Of a DNA stretch of 64,000 nucleotides, positions 12,773-40,893 are shown piece after piece. The stretch comes from a virus. Numbering within the stretch: the stretch's first letter is position 1; every line of letters begins with the position of its first letter. A model generated the notes under the pieces. That model saw only the letters and a program-made list of their open reading frames with translations, had not been told where the DNA came from and made no database searches. The translations under genes and the position numbers were made by a program. Location: the IMG/VR virus record IMGVR_UViG_3300010160_000003, positions 1 to 64,000 of that record; one strand, 5' to 3'.

Positions 12773-13210
12773 TAGATGAGTACCTTTCTTTTTTTAGTAG
12801 TTAAACTTTAACTATCTAATACTGTAAGTATAGCACCGACCACTGACATTTTTGCCCTATTCTCGGGCGTGTCGGTAAACTATTTTTGTGATGTTTATCA
12901 CATAAAATTTCCCCGGCCAATTTTGTCAAGTCAACACACCGATAAACCTCATATCGTTACGTAATCGTTATAATTCCCCATATAATGTGATGTACTTCAC
13001 AGTCGCAAATGTCCGTTTTATACCGATACTAGCCAGTAGAATGTCAGACCCCCCTGCTATAATACTACTATAAAGAAAAACAAGCGGTAAAGAAATCCGC
13101 TAAAGAAAGGTCATAAAAATGACACTACAAGAATATAAAGAAATGGTAGAGGCTCAGCGTAAAGCAAGCCTAGCCGTAGCCCTATCCGTACTAAAGAAAG
13201 AGGTCAAATA

Positions 13211-13384
13211 ATGACTATAAAAAATCTAATCCATGAGCATAATCCTATGCTCTCCGCTATCTCATCAGTAGGAGATGAGCAATTTACTTTCTGCCAAGAT
13301 TGCGAGCAGAATATCTCTCGCTACTATGGCGACCACGACCCTGAGCGGTTACCTATGTGGACAGATTGGTATTTAACTAAATGA
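13211..13384 (+). CDS. Small CxxC early protein, paralog of 13914-14096
   Basis: EHNPMLSAISSVGDEQFTFCQDCEQNISRY...ERLPMWTDWYLTK. Confidence 0.65.
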   Translation: MTIKNLIHEHNPMLSAISSVGDEQFTFCQDCEQNISRYYGDHDPERLPMWTDWYLTK

Positions 13385-13740
13385 GTATTTTTAATTTTGA
13401 GTTATTCGTAACCGTTGAGGCAGATGATTTTGAGTCTGCACTTTCTTGGTTAAAAGTTTCACCCCTTGAAAATCAAATTGATTTTGAGGTTATTGACTAC
13501 ACAGAACTTAAAGGAGAATAAATAAATGGAAAAAGATATTTTTGGATTTGCTGAAGCAATTGAATTAGATAATCTTAGCGATAAAGATTTAAAAATTGTT
13601 GAATTAATTTTTAAAGATTTTAAATAACTAAAAAAGTTTTTTAGAGAATATCAAAACTCTAAAAAATAACCGGGCCGTTTTGTCAAATCGACACGCCGAT
13701 CTTTTTAAGATTGTTACGTAATTGTTATAATTTCCCCTAG

Positions 13741-13762
13741 TTATCCACAGAAGTTATCCACA
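13741..13762 (+). promoter_or_regulatory. Tandem DnaA boxes
   Basis: TTATCCACA at 13741 and 13754. Confidence 0.6.
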
Positions 13763-13913
13763 GTTTTGAAAGTGTGACATAAAACACACGAAAAATCGTC
13801 TCACTATTTGGATTTACTGGCTAGTAATGTCATAAATGTCAGACCCCCCTGCTATAATTGCAGTATAAAGAAAATCAGGTACAGAAATCCTGAATTGAAA
13901 GGTAGGTCACTAA

Positions 13914-14096
13914 ATGACTACAATAAGTAAAACAACAGTATGCGTAGAGCATAACCCTAAATATTCTGCTATCTCAGAAGTATCAGATACACAATACACT
14001 TTCTGCCAAAATTGTGAAAACAATATAGACCGATTTTGGTTAGACTTTGGCTTAGAGCGTATGCCTCAATGGTCAGAGTGGGCGGTGACTAAATGA
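13914..14096 (+). CDS. Small CxxC early protein
   Basis: GAAAGG Shine-Dalgarno; follows the promoter at 13837. Confidence 0.65.
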   Translation: MTTISKTTVCVEHNPKYSAISEVSDTQYTFCQNCENNIDRFWLDFGLERMPQWSEWAVTK

Positions 14097-14420
14097 GTAT
14101 TTGGACTAGGCTTGCTACTGTAAACGATTACCCTAAAGGCATGATGAACTTATGCCCTTGCGGTCAAGTGGTATTAGCCCCTGCGCTATACCATGAGGGG
14201 CAGTCATACATGACTAACCCTAATAAATGTAAAGAATTATTTGAAGGAGAAAATAAATGAGTACCTACGTACCAATTAAATCAGTATGCGGTGCAACTAG
14301 CACCAGCATAGATATCTATGACTTAGACCTTAACCCTCATGGGGTTATCTGTTGTGATAATTGCAAGTCTATCGTGTTGTGCCGTAAGGCATGGGACTTT
14401 CTATACAAGGGGGTTAAGTA

Positions 14421-14615
14421 ATGGCTACAATTACAATAGGCGGATTAGGGCAAAAAATTGCTGTTTACTGTTTCGTGTGTTCTGGTAAAATGTCACACTG
14501 GGCGATTGCTTCAAATGGCGTTCGCTATGAGTGGCAGTGTAAAGATTGCGAAATCTCTATAAAATCAGATAGATTTGGAAATGCTAAATTACTAAAAGAA
14601 ATGGAGAATAAATAA
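14421..14615 (+). CDS. Small zinc-ribbon protein
   Basis: CFVC...CKDC. Confidence 0.55.
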   Translation: MATITIGGLGQKIAVYCFVCSGKMSHWAIASNGVRYEWQCKDCEISIKSDRFGNAKLLKEMENK

Positions 14616-14948
14616 ATGAAAACACTTAAAGAAAAGTTAGATGCAGTAGCGTTAGAGTTAGAGCCAGTACTATGGGATTTACTAAATGAAATTGAGGAGA
14701 AATAAAAATGGATCTATCTTTTTTTTATAGTGGAAATGCACTTTTGTTTTTATCTCTTGGGTTAATTGCTTATGGTTTTATTCTCTTTGCAAAGGGGGAA
14801 TAAAATTTGCCCGGCCCGTTTTTTGACTGGTCAAACCTTTTACGTACGATGTGATTTTTCTCACATGCGACACGCCGTGTTTAGATTTGACTTTTTGACT
14901 TTTTTTTGCTATACTTGCAGTATAACAATTAAATAAGAACAGACAAGG

Positions 14949-15001
14949 CAATGAGCCTAGCAAATAAGTGTGATGAGTATCACAATGAGCCTAGCAAATA
15001 A
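14949..15001 (+). repeat. 19 bp direct repeat flanking a CRP-type site
   Basis: CAATGAGCCTAGCAAATAA at 14949 and 14983. Confidence 0.85.
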
Positions 15002-15067
15002 ATGCCCTAAAATGTCAGCCCTCAATGGTAAGATAGTCTTATCACTAAAACGAAAGGAAGTCACTAA

Positions 15068-15253
15068 ATGACTTACACTATAAAACTAGAAACCTACTCA
15101 GGTTCAATAAAAAATATCCCCCTATCCACTAAAGGACAGGTTGCAGATTTTATCTCTAACTATCCTAATGCGTTACCCGTTGGCGTGTCCGTAAAAATAT
15201 CCTGCGACTTGCTCGGTATTCGCGGAACACTACGCGGAAAGGCAATTCTCTAA
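15068..15253 (+). CDS. Small early protein
   Basis: GAAAGGAAG Shine-Dalgarno after the promoter at 15013. Confidence 0.6.
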   Translation: MTYTIKLETYSGSIKNIPLSTKGQVADFISNYPNALPVGVSVKISCDLLGIRGTLRGKAIL

Positions 15254-15421
15254 TGATAAATTCAGTAATGACAATACCTTGCGAGGAGTGCCACTCAACA
15301 GGTTTAATTTTTTTTGGCGATAACGATAATTTTGATACCGAAACTTGCGAGTGCGATTTTGGTATTGAACAAGACTTATATTTTTTCAACAACAACAACT
15401 AACGAATAGGAAATAAAAAAA

Positions 15422-15631
15422 ATGACAGTATCAATTAAACACAATCTCGCTTTTGTAACTGAAGTAGACGAAACTCATCCAGTAGGTATTCGCCTGCTTG
15501 CACTCCCTGATGAAATGCGAATCCTTATGCTTGAATCAATGCTAAAGGAATTCCTTATCCCAGCACTTGGGCCAGTAATTGATAAAATTAACGAAAATGG
15601 CTCATACGCAATTCTTAAGGTAGTGGAATAA
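15422..15631 (+). CDS. Small early protein
   Basis: Shine-Dalgarno present; operon context. Confidence 0.55.
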   Translation: MTVSIKHNLAFVTEVDETHPVGIRLLALPDEMRILMLESMLKEFLIPALGPVIDKINENGSYAILKVVE

Positions 15632-15814
15632 ATGATGACACGCAAGGACTATGTAGCAACTGCTGAAATTCTAAATGGATTCAAAGATATAATCTTAGAT
15701 GAAATTACTTTTGCTGATTTGGTAGATGAATTTTCTCTAATGTTTGAAAGTGATAATCCAAAATTCTCACCAACAATTTTTGAAACCGCTTGCTATAAAA
15801 ATGCAGATGAATAA
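15632..15814 (+). CDS. Small early protein
   Basis: MTRKDY...DNPKF...F..AC pattern; directly follows the previous ORF. Confidence 0.6.
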   Translation: MMTRKDYVATAEILNGFKDIILDEITFADLVDEFSLMFESDNPKFSPTIFETACYKNADE

Positions 15815-15883
15815 ATAAAATAAAAGACCTGAGCAAGTCTGTGCAAAACTGCTCACTTTTTTATTGCAAAAAAACCCGGCCCG

Positions 15884-15904
15884 TTTTCCACAGGTTTATC
15901 CACA
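15884..15904 (+). promoter_or_regulatory. DnaA box pair
   Basis: TTTTCCACA at 15884 and TTATCCACA at 15896. Confidence 0.55.
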
Positions 15905-16061
15905 GGCAGGTTTAAGATACGCTTACGACACGCCCGAGATCTTGTGAGATTAATCACACCGAAAATGTATCCACATTGTGAGATTTATCCTCTACGATTT
16001 GAAAATGTCACCCGTATCTGATAGGATTACATAGTAATAATAAATTAACTAAAGAAAGAGG

Positions 16062-17577
16062 TTGCCCCCTATGGCTACTAAAGCATATTCTATCGTAGAT
16101 TTACTTGAAGGTAAATACTATCGCTCACACTCCCGTTATATTGACGGACTAATCACTTACGCAGAAAAGCGTGACTCAGTTTACTATGGCGAAGGCTTTG
16201 AGGCTTACCTTGTAAAAGTACGCCCTACCTATAAGGGATTCCCTGATTTGCCCAAAGCAGATTTTTATGCTACGATTGCAGTAAAGGTTGGAGAATAATA
16301 ATGGACTTCTATGATGACTACTATGAAACAGATATGATACGCCCAGATGTAAAAGATTGCTATTGCAAACTTCACTCAATTTGTACTAACTGCATGAAGG
16401 GATATAACTAATGGGAAACTTATTTGATGAGATTGGCACTTGCTACACTTGCTATGATGAAGGACTAATAATGAAAGATGAGTTTATTACAGATTTTTGC
16501 AACGATTGTGAAAAAGGCTCAGTCCTTGCTAATGAGTATGCTATATGGTATGCTGAAAATGAAATGAACGAATACACTAAAGAAATGGAAAATGCATAAT
16601 GGAATATCTATACGCAATAACAGTATCCTATGACGGCAACACACCTCATTGGACAGGTCGCTACTCAGACGCACTAACCGCCGTTGATGAGTTTAATAAG
16701 CATATTGATTGGGGATTTGCAGATGAATACGCAACAGTTAATTTATCTGAGCCAAGTGGAAAGATGCACACACGCACTTTCTATCGTGAAGGCAGAAGGG
16801 TTGTGACTAAGTAATGGAAATTTTTGAGTTTAATACTTTCATAGATGTCGAGGCAGAGTCGTATGATGAAGCCATTGATGTCTTTCAATTCCAATTAAAG
16901 TATGGAATAAATAAAGATAATGTCTATGTCGCAGACATAAAGCAATTAACTAACAACAACGAAAGCGTAGAGGTATAAATAATGGGAAGCGTAACAGCAA
17001 TTGGATTAGCAGATAGCGTATTAGATTTAGAAACTCAATTACTCTATCACTTGAAGGGTAATCACTATCCACCAGTACCAGCAGAAATGGTAACACCATG
17101 CATTGAAGCCATTGATGCAGCCTATGATGAAGATTTTAACCGCATGATTGACATGCCAAAGGTCGGTGACTTTCAGATTCTCTATAAAGACTCAACGCAA
17201 GCACCAGCGTGGGCAATTATTGAACAACACCACTTGGATTGGTTTATCACACCAACAGAGGAGGACTAATGACAGATTTTTATATTCCCCACTCAAAGTA
17301 TTGTGATTGCAACGAATGCCTAACTATTGAGGAGAATGAATAAATGTCTGATACAATAAAAAACGTGGAACTTAGATTTGCTGATAACTTAACACCCTCT
17401 CAACTTATGCCAGGAGATCTAGTCAAGGTTGATGGTGAGTGTGTAACTATTGAAACCCTTACAGAAAATAAACACGGGTTTAATATTTATGCTAGAGATG
17501 ATTTTAACGAAGAGGTTCATTTTTATTTATTTGATGATGAAACTATTGAGTGGTATGTATTTTTTGAAGAAGAATAA
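16062..17577 (+). CDS. Operon of small early hypothetical proteins (16062-16298, 16411-16599, 16599-16814, 16982-17269, 17344-17577 and shorter ORFs)
   Basis: Tightly packed co-oriented ORFs with Shine-Dalgarno sites and TAATG overlaps after the promoter at 16006. Confidence 0.6.
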
Positions 17578-17847
17578 TCACTAAACTAATTTTTAATCCT
17601 TCCCATCACAAAAAACCGCCCGGCACATTTTTTATAGAATGTCAAGTATTTACGTAATTTGACATTTTTCCCCATGTATGCTAAGATTAATTTATGAAAA
17701 CAAGAAAAAACCCCGAGGAATTGCGTAGACTTATGGAATTACGCCGTAGTAATGCAGCCTCAGCCGTACCCTCAAAGAAAAACTATTCTAGAAAAAATAA
17801 ATGTCAGTCCCTTATGCTAGAATTAAAGAAAGAAAGCGAGTCCCCTA

Positions 17848-18570
17848 ATGACTAAACTACTAAGAAGCAAAGATAGAAAAGTAACTAATGCCGTATCCCC
17901 TAATGGTAAGACTGCCACTATTGCTAATACTTTTGGTCTTCCCGCAGGAAAAGCATATTCATGTCCTGGAGCCACAACAGTATGCGAAAGTGTATGCTAT
18001 GCAGGAAAGTTAGAAAAAATATTCCCTAGTGTTAAAGTTAATCTATTACACAATTGGGATTTACTAAAAAATGCAGACGGTGTTACTATGACAACACTAC
18101 TTAATGAAATGATAGATGAGTTTATTGTTGATTGTGAAAAGAAAAATGCAGAAAAGTTATTCCGTATCCACTGGGACGGAGATTTTTTCAATGACACTTA
18201 TGCAATGGCATGGCGTGAGGTTATTCTTAATTATCCTACCGTTCAATTCTGGGTATACACTAGAGTTTCATCTGCGGCTCTTATTCTAAAGGGAATACAA
18301 AACCTATCTCTCTATTTTTCTGCAGATAGCGAAAATATCAAAACTGCCGTTGACTTAAAATTAAATAATGGTATTCGCATGGCGTACCTTGCTAAGACAT
18401 TCGCAATAGGACAAGCAGACATAAAAGAAATGATAGGTAAGCCTAGTGCTAAGTGTCCTGAGAATAATAAACAAATTCCGCTAATCTCAACCAAAGGTTC
18501 GGCTTGCGTTTCTTGCTCATTGTGTGTATACTCTAAGAGTGACATAATTTTTTCTAGTAGTAAGAAGTGA
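17848..18570 (+). CDS. GP88-family protein (Cys-cluster, radical-SAM-like fold)
   Basis: FGLPAGKAYSCPGAT..CESVCYA, FRIHWDGDF and FWVYTR motifs. Confidence 0.65.
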   Translation: MTKLLRSKDRKVTNAVSPNGKTATIANTFGLPAGKAYSCPGATTVCESVCYAGKLEKIFPSVKVNLLHNWDLLKNADGVTMTTLLNEMIDEFIVDCEKKNAEKLFRIHWDGDFFNDTYAMAWREVILNYPTVQFWVYTRVSSAALILKGIQNLSLYFSADSENIKTAVDLKLNNGIRMAYLAKTFAIGQADIKEMIGKPSAKCPENNKQIPLISTKGSACVSCSLCVYSKSDIIFSSSKK

Positions 18571-18895
18571 GATAAAATGGAAGGCTATAAAATATTTTTA
18601 TTTTTTTTATTATTTTTATTTATTTTATTTTTAAACCAGTGAAAACTGGCCCGGCACAAAAATATTTAAAAGTCAAATTTTAACCTTTAAGAAGATCAAT
18701 TTATTTCCCCGATTACGTATGAGATTAATCACACCCAAAAACCTCACTAGGATTTGCTTTTATGACATTTTTATGTCATACTTAGGGTATAAACAAATAA
18801 CAATTCCAAATAGTGAGATTTTTAGGTATTCAACTTGAAAATGTCAGTAGGAAATGTTATACTTAAAATATCAACTAAACAGAAAAGAGAAAATC

Positions 18896-19060
18896 ATGTC
18901 AGTAGCAACCGCAACTTATCGTGTAGGAGATACCTATACAACACAGAAGTCAAAAGTAACAGGAGTCATTGAGGAAATCACAACTCTTGCAAATGGTAAT
19001 GTTCGTGTTAAGTTAAATGTAGAAGGCAACACTCGCTACACAACTTGGACAGCAAAGTAA
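18896..19060 (+). CDS. Small SH3-like early protein
   Basis: YRVGD...GVIEEI...VRVKL; start MSVATAT has a Shine-Dalgarno. Confidence 0.55.
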   Translation: MSVATATYRVGDTYTTQKSKVTGVIEEITTLANGNVRVKLNVEGNTRYTTWTAK

Positions 19061-19141
19061 TCTAATTACTTATTCCTGAGTATGAAATAAAACTACTCAC
19101 GCAATACCCCCTAATAATCCACCAAAGAAAAGAGAAAACAA

Positions 19142-19564
19142 ATGGCTAGAGCAAAAGCAATAAATGTAAAAATCCCAACAGTACGAGTAATCGCAGGACT
19201 AGAGGAAGCACTCGCTACCCTAGAAGCAGACTACGCAACACAATCAGCAAAAGAAGCAAAGTACGAAATTGCTCGCAAGGCTTGGCAAAAAGAAGTTCAG
19301 GACTTTGCTATCGCAAACATCAGCAAGGCAGAAAACTTCCGCACCAACTTCCGTTCTTGGTCAAACAATCTCAACATTGACTTTGACTTGACAGTATTAG
19401 AAAAGGACTTGCCTAAAGAGCCTGAGCAGGACTACGAAGTAATCCATCAGCACACTTATCGTGAGTCAAAGAAAGAAATCACAAACGCAATTCGTCTGTT
19501 AAAAATGACAGATGAGGAAACAGTAAGCACAAGCACTTACAATGCTATTGCTCAGTATCTCTAA
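19142..19564 (+). CDS. Hypothetical early protein
   Basis: 140 aa ORF with Shine-Dalgarno. Confidence 0.7.
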   Translation: MARAKAINVKIPTVRVIAGLEEALATLEADYATQSAKEAKYEIARKAWQKEVQDFAIANISKAENFRTNFRSWSNNLNIDFDLTVLEKDLPKEPEQDYEVIHQHTYRESKKEITNAIRLLKMTDEETVSTSTYNAIAQYL

Positions 19565-19777
19565 ATAATCCAACACCTGAGTATGTGTATAAACTGCTCA
19601 CACAATTAAATGATGGTCTGTCCGTTCCGACGGCATAGGTAAGAGTGTGACCCTTTAACCAAAGGGTATTGAGTCATAACGGCACACCGCCATCCACCCC
19701 TCCCCAGGATCCAGGGAAATTGACAAATGTCAGACCCTCATAGTATAATTAATATAACCAACAAGAAGGAGCCCCAA

Positions 19778-20275
19778 ATGGGATTAGATATGTACCTTAG
19801 TGCAAGAAAGCACTTAGAAAAAATCAACTGGAAAGCACTACAAGGAAATGATGAACTATCTTATTCATCTCCTGAAGCCGTATATCCTAAGTTTAATGAC
19901 CTAATGGAAATCACACAACTATCAGATGTTGCTACAGATATTTATGGAGCAGAGGTATCAGTTACTTGTGCCTACTGGCGCAAGGCTAATCAGATACACA
20001 ACTGGTTCGTTACAAATGTTCAAGGCGATAACGATAACTGCGGAGAATACTATGTATCACAAGATAAACTAACAGAATTAATGGTTTTATGCGAACACGC
20101 ACTTGAAAATAAAGACCCAGCACTACTACCCCCACAAGAAGGATTTTTCTTTGGGGGCACAGATATTGATGAGTGGTATTGGAATCAACTAAAGAATACT
20201 ATTACTCAGTTAAAGCGTATCTTTGCTTTCCCTGAAATTAATAATCTCTCATTCTACTATAACTCATCTTGGTAA
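19778..20275 (+). CDS. Conserved phage protein (MGLDMY / YWRKANQIH family)
   Basis: MGLDMYL, YWRKANQIHNWF, GFFFG and YYNSSW motifs; AAGGAG Shine-Dalgarno. Confidence 0.7.
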   Translation: MGLDMYLSARKHLEKINWKALQGNDELSYSSPEAVYPKFNDLMEITQLSDVATDIYGAEVSVTCAYWRKANQIHNWFVTNVQGDNDNCGEYYVSQDKLTELMVLCEHALENKDPALLPPQEGFFFGGTDIDEWYWNQLKNTITQLKRIFAFPEINNLSFYYNSSW

Positions 20276-20337
20276 TTGACAATTGTCAGTACCCTGCGAT
20301 ATACTTAAACTAACCAACTAACAGAAAGAGGCCCCCA

Positions 20338-20751
20338 ATGGAGCAAACAGTAATACCAGCAACAACGCAAGAATTTCTACAATCTCAGGTATCAATTAAA
20401 GATGAGCGTATTGCTCAACTAGAAGAGCATATCCAAAAACTAACACAACGTTCATATACAGATTCTGCAGAGCGCAACCGTATGGTTGAGGGTATGCAAG
20501 AGTGGACACTTAATGAACTAGAAAATGAAGACATAACAGAAGAGCAAGCAGAAGCAATTGCTGAAATTATGGGCTTTGAACTTACAAAAGAGTTTGAGGT
20601 TGAAGTTACTGTTCTTTATTCTGTTACAGTTAATGCACGTAATGAGGAGCAGGCTACTAATGCAATTCACGATATTGATTTTGATACCGTTGACTATAAC
20701 TCAGACTCAATTCAATACTTGTCATCATCAATTGATAGAGTAGATATTTAG
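20338..20751 (+). CDS. Hypothetical coiled-coil early protein
   Basis: ORF with Shine-Dalgarno after the promoter at 20284. Confidence 0.65.
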   Translation: MEQTVIPATTQEFLQSQVSIKDERIAQLEEHIQKLTQRSYTDSAERNRMVEGMQEWTLNELENEDITEEQAEAIAEIMGFELTKEFEVEVTVLYSVTVNARNEEQATNAIHDIDFDTVDYNSDSIQYLSSSIDRVDI

Positions 20752-21012
20752 TAGGGGGCTACTAATAGACATGCCGAATGTCTATAAACTAGGCAAGGGA
20801 CCTAAGCATTGTCCACGTAAACTGCTTATTTTTTTTATTTATTCAGTTGCATAAAATGTGGGCCGGGGCAGTTGTGATCAATATCACATTGTGAATTACG
20901 ACACAGTTACGATATGCCCGAATTGCCCCATGTCTGCTTATACGATTTGACTTTGTCAGCCCTGTCTGCTAAACTTAGTATAACAATCAAACAGAAAAGG
21001 AAAAATAAACTC

Positions 21013-22029
21013 ATGGCACATGAACTAGAAACACAAAATGGAGTAGCCTCTTTCGCTTCATTTCGTGAACCTGCTTGGCATGGATTGGGTACTGTATTCA
21101 CAGAGGAAAAATCTACATCAGAAATGTTGGCTTCTGCCAATCTTAATGGTTGGAACGTTCGTCTAGAGGATTTAGTGACCCCTTCACATTTATCAAGCGA
21201 CAAAGAATATCAGTATGTCGTTCGCACTAACCCTACTGATAATTCTCAAACCGATATTCTTGGTGTTGTCGGTGAGCGATACCATGTAATGCAAAATGAG
21301 GATTTATTCTCATTTGGAGATAATATCCTAGACGGCGGTGGTCGTTGGGAAACTGCTGGCTCAATCAAGGGTGGTCGTGTTGTATTTGGTGCGTTAGCAC
21401 TAGAGCGTGAAACTATCCTAGACCCTAATGGTGTTGCTGATAAGGTAAAAACTTATTTACTTATTAACACTTCCCATGACGGTTCTATTGCAATTCAAGC
21501 AAGCATAACACCCGTTCGTGTTGTGTGTGCTAATACTCTCAATATGGCACTCAACACTACAAAAAAGAAAAATGGTATCAAGCAATCTTTCAAGATTCGC
21601 CATACGCAAACCGCACAAGGTAAAGTGCAAGTGGCTCGTGAAACTCTTGGGCTTGCTAATGCATACATGGATTCATTTGACATCATGGCAAAAACTTTAT
21701 TTGCTACTGAGGTCAATGCTAAAATGTTCAATGAGATTATTCTCGCTTCATATCCTAAGCCTGAAAAAGATGCTAAGGGTGCAATTAAAAAGTGGGAAAA
21801 TAAAGTTGATACTATCAACGACATTTACACAGGCGAGTTTAACGGCATGATTGCTGGTAATGCTTGGGGTGCGTTCAATGCACTAACTGAGCGACTAGAC
21901 TGGTATCGTTCTGCTCGTGGTGGTTCTAACGAGTCAATTCTTGCAAGTGCAAGTGGATTTGACCCTGCAATTAACGCAGAGAAAAATCGTTTGCTCAAAG
22001 TTGTAAAAAATGTAATGCAACTCGCATAA
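21013..22029 (+). CDS. DUF932 / LGT_TIGR03299 family protein
   Basis: MAHELE, PAWHGLG, ETAGSIKGGRVVF, NTSHDGS and PVRVVCANTL motifs. Confidence 0.85.
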   Translation: MAHELETQNGVASFASFREPAWHGLGTVFTEEKSTSEMLASANLNGWNVRLEDLVTPSHLSSDKEYQYVVRTNPTDNSQTDILGVVGERYHVMQNEDLFSFGDNILDGGGRWETAGSIKGGRVVFGALALERETILDPNGVADKVKTYLLINTSHDGSIAIQASITPVRVVCANTLNMALNTTKKKNGIKQSFKIRHTQTAQGKVQVARETLGLANAYMDSFDIMAKTLFATEVNAKMFNEIILASYPKPEKDAKGAIKKWENKVDTINDIYTGEFNGMIAGNAWGAFNALTERLDWYRSARGGSNESILASASGFDPAINAEKNRLLKVVKNVMQLA

Positions 22030-22067
22030 CAAAATAATCCTGAGCATGATTGAAAACTGCTCCGCAT

Positions 22068-22144
22068 GATTGCGTAGAATAGTTGGTTAATTCGCTAGCC
22101 TGTCACGCTAGAGATCGTGGGTTCAAGTCCCATCGCAATCGCCA
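22068..22144 (+). tRNA. tRNA-Asp (GTC) with encoded CCA
   Basis: Acceptor GATTGCG/CGCAATC; anticodon arm CTAGC-CTGTCAC-GCTAG; T-loop TTCAAGT. Confidence 0.9.
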
Positions 22145-22287
22145 ATAAAATGGGCCGGGTCCGTAACATTTTGTTATAAAACCAATTACGATAGATGACA
22201 TTTTTCCCCAAACCTTATTAAGAAGAACTTGACATTTCCCCCAAACCATGCAATAATTAATACATAACCCACTAACAAAGGAATTTC

Positions 22288-25200
22288 ATGAGAGAACGCA
22301 CAACAGGATATATAGGTAATATTTTAGACGGAAAGAAACTAGCCAAGATTGCCAATAAAATTTACAAAGCGCAATATAACAGTGTTAGTGAATGTACAAT
22401 AGATAACTTACTACTAATTGAACTTGAAGAGAAGAATGTTTTTGGAGATTCAAAGTATGCCGTTGTATGTACAGAGGGTGTTGGCTGGGAGCAAGATAGT
22501 TATGGTTGTCTTGAAATCCCGACAAATGTTGGTGCTATGGGTAACTGGAATGGCCGTGTATTCATATCAGTAGAGGTAATTGGACAATGTTTAACAGGAC
22601 AAACACAGGATATCTCAAAATACATTCGTACCTTTGGAGATAGATTAGATAATAACTGTTACCTATGGCAATGTAAAATGTCAGTCCTACCTAGTACAAT
22701 ATCAGTATGACCCAAACAACATTCAAACCATACACAATATCAGAACTCGTAGATGAAATCTACAACGACAACTACTCACATCTTGAATTCATGGATAACA
22801 TGGGTGGAGATTGTGACTGCGTAATCCATACTACTATGCAAACCATCTTAGAATACTGGGGAGAATAATGTGGACTACCTATAGTTATGTTTGTACTAAC
22901 TGTGATGCATTGATCCAGGTCACTACTCAAGTTACCCCTGAAGAAAATGCATCCTGTACTTGTATGCGTGGGGCCTGGGTAACTCGTACTGCCATGGAAC
23001 CTAATGTGAGCAAGGTCACACCTCCAAAACTTGTAAAAATCAACACCAACCCGTATAATTAATATATGGACCTAAGTACACTAACCGAATATCTAAAGAT
23101 ACACCTAATCAGTATCCAACAGGACTATGATAAGTTACCTGACGGAGACACACATTCTGTTGCCCACCTTAATGGACAACAACTAGCCATTAACCATATA
23201 CTAAGAGTAATCAATGACTGAGAAGTATCCTTTCATACCCGAATATTTGACAAAGGCTTTAGAAGATACATCTATACCTCTAATTGACCTAATGCACGGC
23301 TACCTTAAACAAGAAATGCTGGACACTGAAGAACTAATGAAAGATAACAATGACAGATTTTTTCAGGGATATATAGAAGCCTTGACAAACTGCTATGTCA
23401 TGACCTATAATTTATCTATAGACCGTAAAAACATAGAGGAGACCCAATGACACCACAAGAAATGTTAGAACAGATGATTGACAAGGCTACTTTAGATTTC
23501 TTGGAGATAACCAAGGAAGAAGAAGACGGCGACTTTGGAGATGCAATGCTATCTATGGAACGCACAGAGGCTAATGGTTTTCTAGAAGGTTTGTCAGTGG
23601 CATACCATATAATCTTTGATAAGGTATATACCTCACCAGTAGGATTGGATAACTAATGCCTAAGTGTTTAGATTGCAATAACACCACAAGATTTTGGTAT
23701 CAGGAATTAGGAAATAAACTTGGTATCTATAATGAAGACGGTACCCTTGATGATGTAGAGGACGACTACTACGATGAAGTAGAAGGTGGCACTTGTGCTG
23801 AATGTGAATCTGCAAACATTGAGGGGAAGTTATAATGGATAACTTTATTGAAATGACAGAAGACGAATGGATTGCTACATACAAACCAATCAAAAATCAT
23901 ATAGATACAAATGCTTCTTTTAATGGAGAGATGTTTGAGACATATGGAGAAGAAGTAGAGTTTGTTAAAGCCCAAGATGAGAATCGCATTTGGATGTATG
24001 GAGACGGAGACGACGGTGGGGGATATGTATGGTCTGGTTGGGGATTTGTAAATAGAATAGGATACTTTATCACTGAGGTTCCTTTCCCTGATAATACTAC
24101 TATACAGGTTCAACTTACCATACCGTTTTATTGTTGTGAGAATTGTGACTCAGAACTAGAAGACCCTGATAATCTAATTAGAGATGCCTTTGATGAGGCA
24201 GACTTGCAAAAATGCCCTAAATGTGCTACGATTGATGAAATGACCCTAGTTGAATTGGAGAAGTAAATGATAGAAGGACTCGAAATAGCAGGATATTTTT
24301 CAGTAGACTCAGGACAAGCAATGGTAGGCGACCCCTGCTATCTAGATGATTGGGATACTAATAAAAATGATGAATGGAATCTAGAAGGTAAAGAAGGAGA
24401 GTATTCTTATCATGGTTCTAGTGCTACTACACTAACAGACTCATTCGGACAACTAGGCAACTCTACTGCCGTAGTATTTCAAACGGGATATGGAGACGGA
24501 CTCTACCCTGTATATGTTAAGTTAAATGATGATAATCGTGTTTCAATGGTTGTCATTGACTTTGAGGATAATGTAGAGGTAAACAACTAATGGGGGCACG
24601 TATTAACTTTGTCTTCAAAGACCGTGAGGGCCGCCCTGCAGTAGTCTTATACAGTCACTGGGGCCAAGATGAATGGCAACGAGACATAGCAATGGCCCTA
24701 GACCATGCCCGTCCTAGATGGGGTGATGAGTCTTACTGTACACGTATGATTATTAGTTATTTAATGCAAGATAGCATTCTAGATGAAACTGGATTTGGTA
24801 TTTATGCTATTAATGATACATTATCTACCCTAGGAGATCAAACCGTTATAATTGATATCATTCAAGAAACTATTATTGACGGTAATACTAAGGTAGACTG
24901 GGACTTATTTGTACAGGCATACAAGCCTGTCGCTGCGCTAGTGGGGGGGTAGGGTCACTCTCGCACTTACGGTGGGGGGCCAACTGTGGTGGGTTGCTCC
25001 CCACCTTCTTTTTTGGTATAATAGTAAAGAGAGGAACTCATGTATAAAATTACTAGAAATAATGTAGCCACTAATGAAGAAAAGATTGCTAAAAAAATAT
25101 CGGTACTTTTATCAGATTTCACTATTGACTTAGAAAAGGTTGGATACTATTTAGCAAGAGCGACACCCTATTTACTTTTTTGCAGAAGCCTAGAAGTATT

Positions 25201-25917
25201 AGAGTCAGCACAATTTCAGAAAGACACCATTGAACAACAGAGAATAGGATATGATAATGACAGACTTTTTTATTAAGTGTCAGATTTTAGGGGAACTATA
25301 TGAAAACTATAAAGAAGAGTTTGAAGATTTAATTGAAATAAATGACATTGGTTTTCCAATAGCATATCTAAATACACAAAACCTAGTTATACCAACTTCT
25401 CCAGGAATGAGATATGTAGAAGAGGCATGGGATATGCTATTACTAGACCTTGTGGTTGAAGATAAAGGTTTTGAAGATTTAGATGATTTGTTGGTTTTTG
25501 CAAACTATGAATGAAATCTAGCCCTGCGGGGCCGGGATTTTTTATAAAATTTTAAACCATCAAACCATATTTCCTAAAACCTTATTACGAAGCATCCAAA
25601 TTTTTTCCCCAAACCTCATCTGCTATACTTGAACTATGGCTAATTTTGAAACGGTATGTGGAATTCTAGGTGAACTACACTTTAACTATGGTGATAGTAA
25701 AGACTTTAGAGGTTTTGTAGAGTTTAATGATCTTGGCCTTCCCCTGGCTTTTTTAATAAATGAAGGTTTGGTAGTAGAGTTATCAGATGATGGACGCAGG
25801 TATGTTATAGATACCTTTGATATGTTTGTTGCTTCCCTCAAAGTAGATCCTGATGACATCATGGACGGCATGACGCTTGATGAACTTTTGGAAATCGCTG
25901 CAGCATCCCAAACATAA
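22288..25917 (+). CDS. Cluster of small hypothetical proteins (22288-22710, 22868-23062, 23214-23450, 23447-23656, 23835-24266, 24267-24590 DUF4241-like, 24590-24952, 25040-25276, paralogs 25251-25514 and 25636-25917)
   Basis: Co-oriented overlapping ORFs; GYGDGLYPVY motif in 24267-24590; shared CxILGEL...NDxGxP motif in the last two. Confidence 0.6.
24970..25014 (+). terminator. Intrinsic terminator
   Basis: GGTGGGGGGCCAAC / GTTGCTCCCCACC stem followed by a T-tract. Confidence 0.65.
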
Positions 25918-26820
25918 AACCTTACAAGACATTACGAAGCCCTAAAAACTTTTCCCCAATCATCGACAAACCTTCAAACCTTCATGCCAGGATATAAGGT
26001 TTGTTATTCCTATAGAGGTATTACGAACTCTCTTTATTTATCCCCCGCCCTGCAATCAATCTAAGGATATTCAAACATTCTGCAGCGGGGGATCAAAAGA
26101 TATACCAAACCACACAGTATAAAACACATTACGAATAACATATATTTTTCCCTGGTTTTCTAGATATTTATCAAACCTTTCAAACCTTTATATGATTTAA
26201 TTGGACATTTTCTCCACATTTGTGTAGGGTTTTAGAGTTGACAAATGGAAGGTTTGGGAGTATAATGCCAGGGTTTGTAAGGTTTGACAATGTAAAGGTT
26301 TTATGATAGGAGGTTTTGGGGTGTGAGGTTTGAAGGTTTTGGGGTGTGAGGTTTGTCCGTTAGACATTACGAACGCATCTGTATAAATGCTCCATTCCCC
26401 ACTTCACTCCACTTTCCTCCACTTTAAGATAAATCTAAAAAATATCAGTAACATTTATCCTGTGGATAACTATCCTAAACCTGTGGATAACTCTATCAAA
26501 CCACGCCTTCCTCCTGTGGATAACTTCATCAAACCTCTGCATAAACCTGTGGATAACTATCAAACATATGTAATAGATATGTTCTATAACCTGTGGATAA
26601 CTCCTAGAGTTACTCTGATAACTTTGTGATATTATGGGTATATGAAACCTTTTCTGATCATTATGCTTGGCCTATTTCTATTCTTAAATTACATGGCTTA
26701 TCTCCAACAAATCCGTATGAGTGGATAAAACCAGGGTATATAAACCTCTGGCTATCTGGCATATGGGGCTATAAGGCTATCTGGCTATAGGGTTTGTATC
26801 TTATACTGGGGATTATGATG
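25918..26820. repeat. Non-coding, repeat-rich putative replication origin
   Basis: About 20 AAACC(T/A) pentamers in both orientations, TTACGAA repeats, duplicated AGGTTTTGGGGTGTGAGGTTT, GGCTAT repeats and five DnaA boxes. Confidence 0.6.
26459..26602 (-). promoter_or_regulatory. Five co-oriented perfect DnaA boxes
   Basis: CCTGTGGATAACT 13-mer; TGTGGATAA core at 26461, 26482, 26515, 26548 and 26592. Confidence 0.8.
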
Positions 26821-26857
26821 TCTTGACTTTCCCCCGATTTTTTGATATGATGGTTTA

Positions 26858-27484
26858 ATGAAGCAATGGAAGCAAAGAACCTGGTTTCAGGCTCCCGATG
26901 GCACAAAAGGATCTAATGCCTTAGTTGCTAAAGAGGCTGGAGTTACTACTGGAACAGTTACCAATGTATTTAGTTATCCTGAAAAAGTAATACCAGAGAC
27001 TAAAAAAAGGGTTTTAGAGGCAGTTAAAAAACTTAACTATACCTACAATGTAATGCCAACAATGAAAATGTGTACTGTCTGTAAGGTTGCCAAACCATTT
27101 GAAGATTTTTATGATGGCTATAAAGCCAAGAAACAAAGAGATGTTACAAATAAAAAATATCTTCATTCTAGATGTAAAGATTGCGATCATGCCAGAGTTA
27201 AGGTCTATCATAAAAATAATAGGGTTAAAGTTAGAAAACAACAGTTAATTTCTCATAGACGTAGAGAGTATGGGCTAACTGAAGAAGAATACAATAATAT
27301 GGTTTTGTCTCAAAATAACATGTGCGCTATCTGCAATAAGCCTAATGATAGAACCTTACATATAGACCATGAGCATGTAACAGGCAAGGTTAGGGGCTTG
27401 CTATGCTCTAACTGTAACCTAGGTATAGGACTGCTTCAAGAAGATCTTATTATTCTTAATAGGGCTATTAAGTACTTATCTTGA
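26858..27484 (+). CDS. LacI-type HTH fused to recombination endonuclease VII (HNH) domain
   Basis: VAKEAGVTTGTVTNVF...ETKKRVLEAVKKLNY, then CxxC pairs and HIDHEHVTGKVRGLLCSNCNLGIG. Confidence 0.8.
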   Translation: MKQWKQRTWFQAPDGTKGSNALVAKEAGVTTGTVTNVFSYPEKVIPETKKRVLEAVKKLNYTYNVMPTMKMCTVCKVAKPFEDFYDGYKAKKQRDVTNKKYLHSRCKDCDHARVKVYHKNNRVKVRKQQLISHRRREYGLTEEEYNNMVLSQNNMCAICNKPNDRTLHIDHEHVTGKVRGLLCSNCNLGIGLLQEDLIILNRAIKYLS

Positions 27485-40608: not shown

Positions 40609-40893
40609 TTATGTCTCCATTGTCAATGATTGCCATGTATTAGCCCAATCTTGCTTTGTTTTATGTTTATTAAATTCTCTAGATATATTTCCTAATTCAA
40701 GAAATACACCACCCCAAACACCATATTCTTTGCCAGAAACACCAACAGCAAAACATGTTGTTGATACTGGACATCTTTGGCACATTGAGTCTACAATTGA
40801 ACGGACATCAATGACTTCTTCATACTTATCAAAAAATATATTAGTATCAAGGCCAAGGCAGGCTGCTTCATCTTTCCATAAATGTTGTTTCAT
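40609..40893 (-). CDS. whiB: WhiB-family Fe-S transcription factor
   Basis: C...CxxCPV...C plus YGVWGG. Confidence 0.9.
   Translation of the reverse strand: MKQHLWKDEAACLGLDTNIFFDKYEEVIDVRSIVDSMCQRCPVSTTCFAVGVSGKEYGVWGGVFLELGNISREFNKHKTKQDWANTWQSLTMET

Follow-up and report, generated by a model that had tools for sequence, protein, structure and literature searches.

A window of 64,000 nucleotides, comprising the first 64 kb of the 100,390-bp virus record IMGVR_UViG_3300010160_000003 (36% G+C, with direct terminal repeats), contains nine intergenic blocks (at about 12.9, 13.7, 14.8, 15.9, 17.6, 18.7, 20.9, 22.2 and 25.5 kb) in which a small set of short sequence words recurs. These blocks lie among about 45 small plus-strand open reading frames (ORFs) at 12.8-26.8 kb, nearly all of them without a known family, which start at a divergent promoter region at 12.8-13.1 kb and are presumably early genes. 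We consider it fairly probable that the blocks are cis-regulatory cassettes at which host RNA polymerase would be engaged through a PafBC-type word and tuned by a CRP-family dimer, by DnaA and by a reader of the word CGACACGCCG, and which would also serve as exchange points. The nine blocks would be copies of a family-wide cassette heading each transcription unit of the small-gene block, and running 5′ to 3′ from the intrinsic terminator of the previous unit to a GC-rich tag of 6-10 bp, then to distal operators (CGACACGCCG and/or one or two DnaA boxes, sometimes TTACGTAA), then to a CRP-type palindrome and finally to a promoter lacking a -35 consensus, composed of TGTCAG at -28..-23 and an extended -10 box. 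The words themselves, with their excess, order, phasing, conservation, swapping and joints, were computed here; which proteins bind them, and whether binding activates or represses, we infer from the sequence.

Excess, order and phase of the operator words

The words that an earlier note had named in these blocks were all present at their places, far above the counts expected from shuffle controls of the window. Perfect TGTGA-N6-TCACA sites occur 7 times (0.08 expected), the DnaA box TTATCCACA 10 times (0.97 expected), CGACACGCC 4 times (0.01 expected), TGTCAG-N10-TAnnnT 11 times (0.81 expected) and TTACG-N8-18-TTCCCC 6 times (0.16 expected). CCGG is depleted, with 9 copies in the window versus about 41 expected, and the whole 100 kb also holds 9; every one of these nine sites falls inside the nine listed blocks. 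The words as a group are limited to about 10-30 kb of the whole 100-kb genome. Contigs from three of five freshwater metagenome runs matched the blocks without one difference, so that the blocks are not assembly artefacts, and each of the five runs contained at least half of the sampled words of the window.

The earlier note had also held that the blocks share their parts in similar order. The order is indeed kept across the phage family, but all six parts occur together in the 13.7-kb block only, and while CCGG is found in each of the nine blocks, those at 22.2 and 25.5 kb lack TGTCAG and consist just of the CCGG tag, TTACG..TTCCCC and a sigma-70-type promoter. At 12.9 kb, two half-cassettes stand back to back, and the order is mirrored because one half serves a leftward promoter. 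Four more TGTCAG promoters, at 19728, 20284, 22679 and 23592, have no island.

Relatives were collected by scanning viral contigs with the protein GP88, encoded within the window; at least 596 were found, and 80 loci (1.31 Mb, with GP88 75-88% identical) were analysed. These contain 419 perfect CRP-type palindromes, 442 DnaA boxes, 273-325 CGACACGCC words and 710 TGTCAG-N10-TAnnnT promoters. An unbiased count of the 9-mers repeated within loci placed AAAATGTCAG, GTTATCCACAGG, GGCGTGTCG and a conserved terminator stem at the top. Across 287 unique CRP-type sites, information was present only in TGTGAt....aTCACA. When 61 orthologous copies of the 14.8-15.0 kb block were aligned, conservation was 80-99% in the two half-sites, TGTGA and TCACA, compared with 10-60% for the central six bases; conserved half-sites around a free centre are the signature of a dimeric protein's site under selection. 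The suggestion that the motifs themselves are selected was thereby borne out, with half-sites conserved, centres and flanks drifting, and words recurring in blocks that otherwise do not align. A lack of conservation beyond background in relatives had been set beforehand as what would refute the proposal; across the 80 loci such conservation was found.

The arrangement of the words relative to promoters is similarly constrained. Among the relatives, the CRP site lies upstream of the promoter 383 times and downstream 6 times, and in about 390 cases versus 96 a CGACACGCC word or a DnaA box comes before the CRP site rather than after it, so that the cassette reads from distal CGACACGCC or DnaA boxes through the CRP palindrome, the most proximal operator, to the promoter. 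For spacing, taken as the distance between the CRP centre and the start of the following -10 box, instances were grouped into 51 sequence families less than 70% alike. The distances cluster at 40.5-42.5, 51.5-53.5, 62.5-65.5, 71.5-74.5 and 87.5-91.5 bp, with a vector strength of 0.55 at a 10-bp period, and the window's own spacings are 52.5 (twice), 62.5, 64.5, 71.5, 72.5 and 89.5 bp. No operator site overlaps the promoter core. A CRP-family dimer placed on one helix face, about 41, 52.5, 63, 73 or 90 bp upstream of the -10 box (the summary peaks of this distribution), would tune promoter output, as would DnaA and a CGACACGCCG-binding factor further upstream.

This geometry bears directly on the other proposal of the earlier note, a decoy array, in which replicating phage DNA would soak up host CRP, DnaA and other regulators and so reprogram the host. 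The genome does carry many perfect consensus sites (7 CRP and 10 DnaA), and an array of DnaA boxes at 26461-26600, away from the TGTCAG promoters, resembles DnaA-titrating or origin loci. A sponge, however, has no need of the order, of the roughly 10-bp phase to promoters or of a core that is never overlapped, and fixed order and helical phase therefore fit promoter control better. Moreover, the sites are confined to a single gene block and not scattered through the genome, relatives exchange one site type for another at a given promoter, as would be expected of alternative inputs, and the five-box DnaA array, the only serious candidate, looks more like an origin beside repeats. We regard the decoy array as very unlikely. 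A search of the literature for CRP or DnaA operator arrays in phages, or for decoys of this type, turned up nothing relevant.

Promoter type, candidate readers and exchangeable inputs

Compiled from 661 promoters, the consensus reads aAaaTGTCAGtCCc..aTG.TA.AaT and shows nothing conserved at -35, and TGTCAG occupies -28..-23 if the -10 box is set at -12..-7. The PafBC "sigma adaptation" motif is tGTCgg(N10)tA(N3)T, with helix-turn-helix (HTH) contacts at -23 to -28 (PMC8635444), and the phage promoters have the geometry of PafBC-dependent promoters. With the PafBC-dependent (RecA-NDp) promoters of Mycobacterium and other Actinobacteria (PMC8635444; PMC11804915) they share TGTC(A/G)G exactly 10 bp upstream of TAnnnT and the absence of a -35 consensus. 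They differ in being phage-borne, in about a dozen copies, before small genes instead of repair genes; their -26 word is TGTCAG(t/a)CC compared with tGTCgg for PafBC, and some copies add a TTGACA -35 box. Unlike the consensus, the promoters at 19720, 20276, 18835 and 20947 have TTGAnA at 17-18 bp. Host RNA polymerase carrying its housekeeping sigma factor would read these promoters via a PafBC-like adaptor bound to the -26 word.

For the proximal operator, the TGTGA-N6-TCACA palindrome is what we take, from established knowledge of the family, to be the CRP/GlxR consensus, and the phage sites agree with it exactly, T6 and A11 included. As in CRP/GlxR class I-type activator sites, a perfect TGTGAt....aTCACA stands upstream of the promoter core in steps of about 10 bp; unlike those sites, the phage palindromes are paired with a non-canonical promoter and lie about 3 bp off the E. 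coli class I register. We consider them putative host CRP-family sites. The extended DnaA-box consensus aGTTATCCACAgG, derived from 302 unique sites, equals E. coli oriC R1 (GTTATCCACAGG) and R4 (AGTTATCCACA) with their flanks in the MG1655 record; the match to R1 covers 12 of 12 bases. Because no Crp-HTH, DnaA C-terminal (DnaA_C), WYL or Sigma70_r2 domain was found in the 100-kb phage genome, host proteins are the simplest readers.

The readers of some or all words might instead be encoded by the phage, with the likeness to host sites due to mimicry or coincidence; small early proteins like MotA/AsiA of T4 could act at the -26 word, for example, and the palindrome could be bound by a Cro-type dimer. 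In favour of this, the majority of early ORFs cannot be assigned to a known family, no known host site corresponds to CGACACGCCG, TTACGTAA or the tag, the tag type varies by lineage as phage immunity operators do, and one small phage gene, P0001 (described below), co-occurs with one tag type. Against phage readers stand the identity of the DnaA box to E. coli R1 over all 12 bases, the exact CRP/GlxR consensus of the palindrome and the domain survey just mentioned, and Pfam detected no HTH in the early ORFs longer than 60 aa; promoters that fire on entering DNA cannot depend on phage proteins not yet made. Overall, we judge phage-encoded readers unlikely.

Several of the remaining words turned out to be different from what the earlier note had supposed. 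It had labelled CGACACGCC a WhiA target, which is not supported, since the GACAC pentamer alone is enriched only 1.1-fold, compared with 36-fold for GACACGCC and 166-fold for CGACACGCC; the next base is mostly G, and the CGACACGCC(G) site is, from the occurrences collected here, evidently a longer asymmetric 10-mer that occurs in either orientation. TTACG..TTCCCC, previously counted as a single part, proved to be a mix of a swappable word, a sigma-70-type -35 box with its spacer, and origin-region repeats. At 17.65 kb it is the swappable TTACGTAA beside a conserved TTGACAttttt -35 box with CCCC in the spacer, and at 22-26.4 kb it is a direct repeat, (C/T)ATTACGAA..TTTCCCC, adjoining the DnaA-box array. 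Conserved words outside the first list include AATGTCCGATTT and CGTCTCA-N5-TGAGA. Between the CRP site and the promoter we observed AATGTCCG(A/T)TTT and this same inverted repeat (13790-13815 and 18795-18815, and in relatives). The word TTTGTCAAG was mostly rejected as a new operator, being largely a sigma-70-type -35 box on the other strand. The combinatorial host-state circuit that the earlier note envisaged is thus supported in part, at the sequence level, as regards ordered control regions ahead of promoters and exact CRP, DnaA and PafBC words; the WhiA label, CCGG as a conserved part and TTACG..TTCCCC as a single part are not supported. In such a circuit the gene block would be tied to host state through single-stranded DNA or damage, cAMP or energy, and replication.

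Comparison of orthologous promoters revealed how freely the inputs change. Upstream of the GP88-operon promoter, one relative or another has a CRP palindrome, two DnaA boxes, GGCGTGTCG or TTACGTAA, and the operators therefore behave as interchangeable inputs. Downstream genes are often found behind another upstream block in relatives, and in metagenome run X3 a joint of depth 202 (13859>19129) leads from the base after the -10 box of the 13.84-kb promoter to 19129, skipping 5.3 kb. Two paralogous small CxxC genes (13211-13384 and 13914-14096) have identical promoters (TGTCAGACCCCCCTGCTATAAT), and metagenome contigs include recombinants between them (joints 13373>14086 and 14029>13336). The cassettes would thus double as exchange points for gene shuffling among related phages.

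The closest described analogue is the PeSL (promoter-early stem-loop) cassette of T4-type phages, which joins a terminator to an early promoter and marks points of exchange (PMC2839356, PMC4122927). In the phage studied here, hairpins with T runs lie upstream of the blocks and promoters downstream, in 9-13 cassette copies. Common to both systems are a composite of terminator and promoter repeated between small variable genes, and, apparently, genetic exchange at these points, suggested here by metagenome joints and mosaic pairing of blocks with genes. The two have no sequence relation and belong to different phage lineages and host phyla; the present cassettes are 150-250 bp long, separate the terminator from the promoter by a lineage-specific tag and several operator words, and use a -26/-10 promoter compared with -35/-10 in PeSL.

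Such exchange might suggest that the blocks mainly serve as scaffolds for recombination, in the manner of PeSL homology patches, or are remnants of tandem duplications, and that their non-promoter words have little regulatory meaning. The paralogous genes with identical promoters after the 13.04- and 13.84-kb blocks, the joints at promoters and between paralogues, and the mosaic pairing among relatives are what this explanation would predict. Homology patches would not account for half-sites that are conserved while centres and flanks drift, for words recurring in blocks that otherwise do not align, or for the maintained order and phase, and we hold the scaffold explanation to be highly improbable.

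A number of observations do weigh against cassettes read by host regulators. The counts across relatives are of non-independent events, one promoter family is out of phase at 57.5/58.5 bp, and the CRP spacing departs from E. coli class I positions as described above. TGTCAG promoters with a good TTGACA -35 box (19720, 20276) may need no adaptor. A good part of the cassette is unexplained, as CGACACGCCG, TTACGTAA, AATGTCCGATTT and the tag have no known reader, and the lone metatranscriptome run gave six short contigs on the stretch, too few for transcription starts.

A lineage-specific tag at the cassette boundary

The earlier note had treated the CCGG island as a conserved part of the blocks, yet over 10-20 kb of sequence CCGG is missing altogether from 71 of the 80 relatives. 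In the remaining nine, each copy directly follows a terminator T run or tRNA-Asp, as in the window, and lies 0-10 nt ahead of the first operator; the other relatives have a different six-letter word at the same position. By tag, the loci divide into a CCGG type (CCGG/CCCGGG; 10 loci including the window), CTCGGG/CCCGAG (CYCGRG; 10 loci), GACGTC (8 loci), CACGTG/CACGTC (18 loci), CCTAGG (10 loci) and GGCGCC (3 loci), with 22 loci unassigned. Within a locus, its own tag occurs about seven times and the other types hardly at all, and 81-88% of tag copies are located at most 45 nt upstream of an operator word, compared with 7% of random positions. Different tags occur in orthologous blocks whose 40-nt flanks are near-identical, and the nearest neighbour by gene sequence often has another tag. 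These comparisons indicate that the tag changes more quickly than the sequence around it and that every cassette of a genome switches with the others, a joint switch that points to a trans-acting reader with switchable six-base specificity.

Most tags are palindromic, and every one is the sort of word that type II restriction enzymes cleave. It is possible, though we put it forward only tentatively, that the CCGG island represents one variant of a specificity system not described before, whose reader would have a switchable 6-bp specificity to be matched by every cassette. This reader could be a strain-specific host restriction-modification enzyme, exploited or accommodated at phage control regions, or a phage regulator defining immunity or compatibility groups. 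A comparable case is that of the stoperators of Cluster A mycobacteriophages, 13-bp asymmetric sites of a known phage repressor that are distributed genome-wide (PMC6550527, PMC9283540). Like stoperators and their immunity groups, the tags are present in many intergenic copies that are uniform within a genome and vary between related lineages; unlike them, they are 6-10 bp long, mostly palindromic, restriction-site-like and confined to cassette edges, and no repressor was found.

Only one gene was found to go with a tag type. P0001 (23656-23835, plus strand) encodes an acidic zinc-ribbon protein of 59 aa with a CxxC...CxxC pattern, and is present in 6 of the 6 CCGG-type loci that reach that far and in none of 71 others. 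In an independent sample, all 16 loci with a P0001 homologue of at least 45% identity contain CCGG, in 7-11 copies where the cassettes are covered. P0001 has no family in Pfam, PHROGs or Atlas. Its acidic charge speaks against DNA binding and is compatible with an anti-restriction role, which would fit the sequence and which we offer as a lead only; if the specificity-system reading is true, P0001 would be the partner or anti-restriction helper of the CCGG type. A survey of 10 kb on either side of GP88 gave no convincing gene co-varying with the other tag types, and a distant P0001-like allele (in L103 and L104) was dismissed as the CACGTG-type partner because it is not common to the CACGTG-type loci.

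Other explanations for the islands were also discarded. They are not terminator stems, as folding places them outside the hairpins, which lie just upstream, and GC patches are not a feature of the blocks alone, as GC-rich 9-mers occur in coding DNA too. A protein encoded at 26858-27484 that combines a LacI-type HTH with an endonuclease VII domain was excluded as a reader of the palindrome or tag, since relatives have no homologue at that place. As a separate observation, locus L013 is a mosaic when compared with L016: its left five cassettes have GCCGGC-type tags like those of L016, and its right part has neither CCGG nor P0001. AGCT is wholly missing from the whole genome G000 (0 versus 296 expected), and ACCGGT, CCGCGG, CTCGAG, TCCGGA, TCGCGA, TGCGCA and other CG-containing palindromes are absent or nearly so in the phage family, which fits strong restriction pressure or CpG depletion. 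No C5 and no N4/N6 DNA methyltransferase was found in the phage genome.

Our literature searches found no paper describing cassettes of this kind in phages. New in the present analysis are the failure of the WhiA label, the match to the R1/R4 flanks, the comparison with PeSL together with the joints, and the lineage-specific tags with their link to P0001. If the regulatory reading is true, an abundant group of lake phages times a block of about 40 small genes according to the energy status, replication and DNA damage of slow-growing freshwater actinobacteria, a lytic-type phage senses host physiology through borrowed master regulators, and the promoters would be the first of the sigma-adaptation (PafBC) type outside the host DNA-damage regulon. 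The swappable modular operators would provide a natural library for rewiring promoter inputs. The boundary tags may tie phage regulatory DNA to strain-level restriction-modification diversity or to phage immunity groups, a link that would bear on the coexistence of microdiverse host populations and their phages.

Layout of the blocks, candidate origin and neighbouring genes

The leftward half of the divergent region comprises a PafBC-type promoter, TGTCAG-N10-TATACT, on the minus strand (12827-12848), a CGACACGCC word in minus orientation (12866-12874) and a perfect CRP-type palindrome (12887-12902) centred 62.5 bp from the leftward -10 box. The boundary tag, of CCGG type (TCCCCGGCCA), is at 12910-12919, and the rightward half continues on the plus strand with TTACGTAA..TTCCCC (12957-12979), a CRP palindrome (12986-13001) and a PafBC-type promoter (13042-13063). 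The 13.7-kb block (13669-13858, plus strand) has its tag at 13669-13678, CGACACGCC at 13689, TTACGTAA..TTTCCCC at 13714-13737, DnaA boxes at 13741 and 13754, a CRP site with one mismatch at 13773-13788 and its promoter at 13837-13858. The next block (14808-15034, plus strand) is a double arrangement: the tag (14808-14819) is followed by a CRP site (14850-14865), CGACACGCC (14868) and a sigma-70-type promoter, TTGACT-N17-TATACT (14887-14915), and then by a second CRP site (14969-14984) and a PafBC-type promoter (15013-15034), with both CRP centres 52.5 bp from a -10 box.

At 15874-16027 (plus strand) we found the tag (15874-15884), DnaA boxes at 15884 (one mismatch) and 15896, CGACACGCC at 15926, a CRP site at 15943-15958, a DnaA-like box at 15967 and a promoter variant, TGTCAC-N10-TAGGAT (16006-16027). 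The block at 17615-17823 (plus strand) carries its tag at 17615-17626, TTACGTAA at 17650, a sigma-70-type promoter TTGACA-N17-TAAGAT with TTCCCC in the spacer (17659-17687) and, upstream of the GP88 gene, a PafBC-type promoter (17802-17823). For the block at 18646-18863 (plus strand), the tag (18646-18657) precedes TTACGTAT and a CRP site with one mismatch (18713-18733) and the promoter (18842-18863). Two hybrid promoters follow on the plus strand: at 19720-19749 a TTGACA -35 box and a TGTCAG -26 word share one TATAAT, with no tag and no operators, and at 20276-20305 the elements are TTGACA and TGTCAG-N10-TATACT. The block at 20858-20975 (plus strand), upstream of a DUF932 gene, has a tag (20858-20871), a CRP site (20873-20888), a second with one mismatch (20890-20905) and a promoter (20954-20975).

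The last two blocks, both on the plus strand, are of the reduced kind. At 22151-22257 the tag (22151-22163) lies right behind tRNA-Asp and is followed by TTACGA..TTTTCCCC (22186-22209) and a sigma-70-type promoter (22229-22257), without TGTCAG; at 25521-25628 the tag (25521-25537) is followed by TTACGA..TTTTCCCC (25585-25610) and an extended -10 box, TGCTATACT.

Downstream of these, five perfect DnaA boxes (CCTGTGGATAAC) in one orientation, on the minus strand, are spaced by 21, 33, 33 and 44 bp at 26461-26600, with no TGTCAG promoter beside them. The array sits in a non-coding stretch of roughly 900 bp (flanks 25932-26850) that contains ATTACGAA..TTTCCCC, CCACTT and GGCTATCTGGC repeats and many AAACCTT words; its portion at 25932-26400 (plus strand), with four further (C/T)ATTACGAA..TTTCCC(C) repeats, is likely the flank of an origin. 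We consider the array a candidate lytic origin using host DnaA, or a candidate DnaA sink. Like the DnaA-box arrays of oriC, the P1 plasmid origin and datA, it has five consensus boxes in one orientation, spacing in multiples of about 11 bp and adjoining repeats, but it belongs to a lytic-type phage with its own DnaE and without DnaA, in which more boxes occur singly or paired before promoters. Directly after the array lies the LacI-HTH/endonuclease VII gene mentioned above (26858-27484, plus strand; HTH at residues 23-63, endonuclease VII at 133-207). None of the 80 relatives has a homologue at the same place, and on this comparison the ORF is probably a mobile nuclease gene.

The source is an uncultured freshwater phage, most likely with an actinobacterial host. 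The best phage protein matches are to Streptomyces and Mycobacterium phages at 54-56% identity; the phage DnaE polymerase is 54% identical to the DnaE of Streptomyces phages, and the GP88-family protein has its best match in mycobacteriophages. Megablast against phages gave no close cultured relative. A WhiB protein is encoded at 40609-40893 on the minus strand. In a scan of genome contigs, the sole match with the phage WhiB was L085 (CAYZIG010000046.1), a 4-kb contig encoding a WhiB of this phage family at 67% identity and binned in a 0.7-Mb metagenome-assembled genome labelled Candidatus Saccharibacteria; as no other WhiB occurs in that genome, the contig is probably phage DNA binned there by mistake and not an indication of the host. 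Between 32231 and 40381 lies a low-GC (29-34%) cluster of glycosyltransferases, an NAD-dependent epimerase/dehydratase, an FkbM-type methyltransferase and a PIG-L deacetylase, whose products may modify DNA or the cell surface with sugars.

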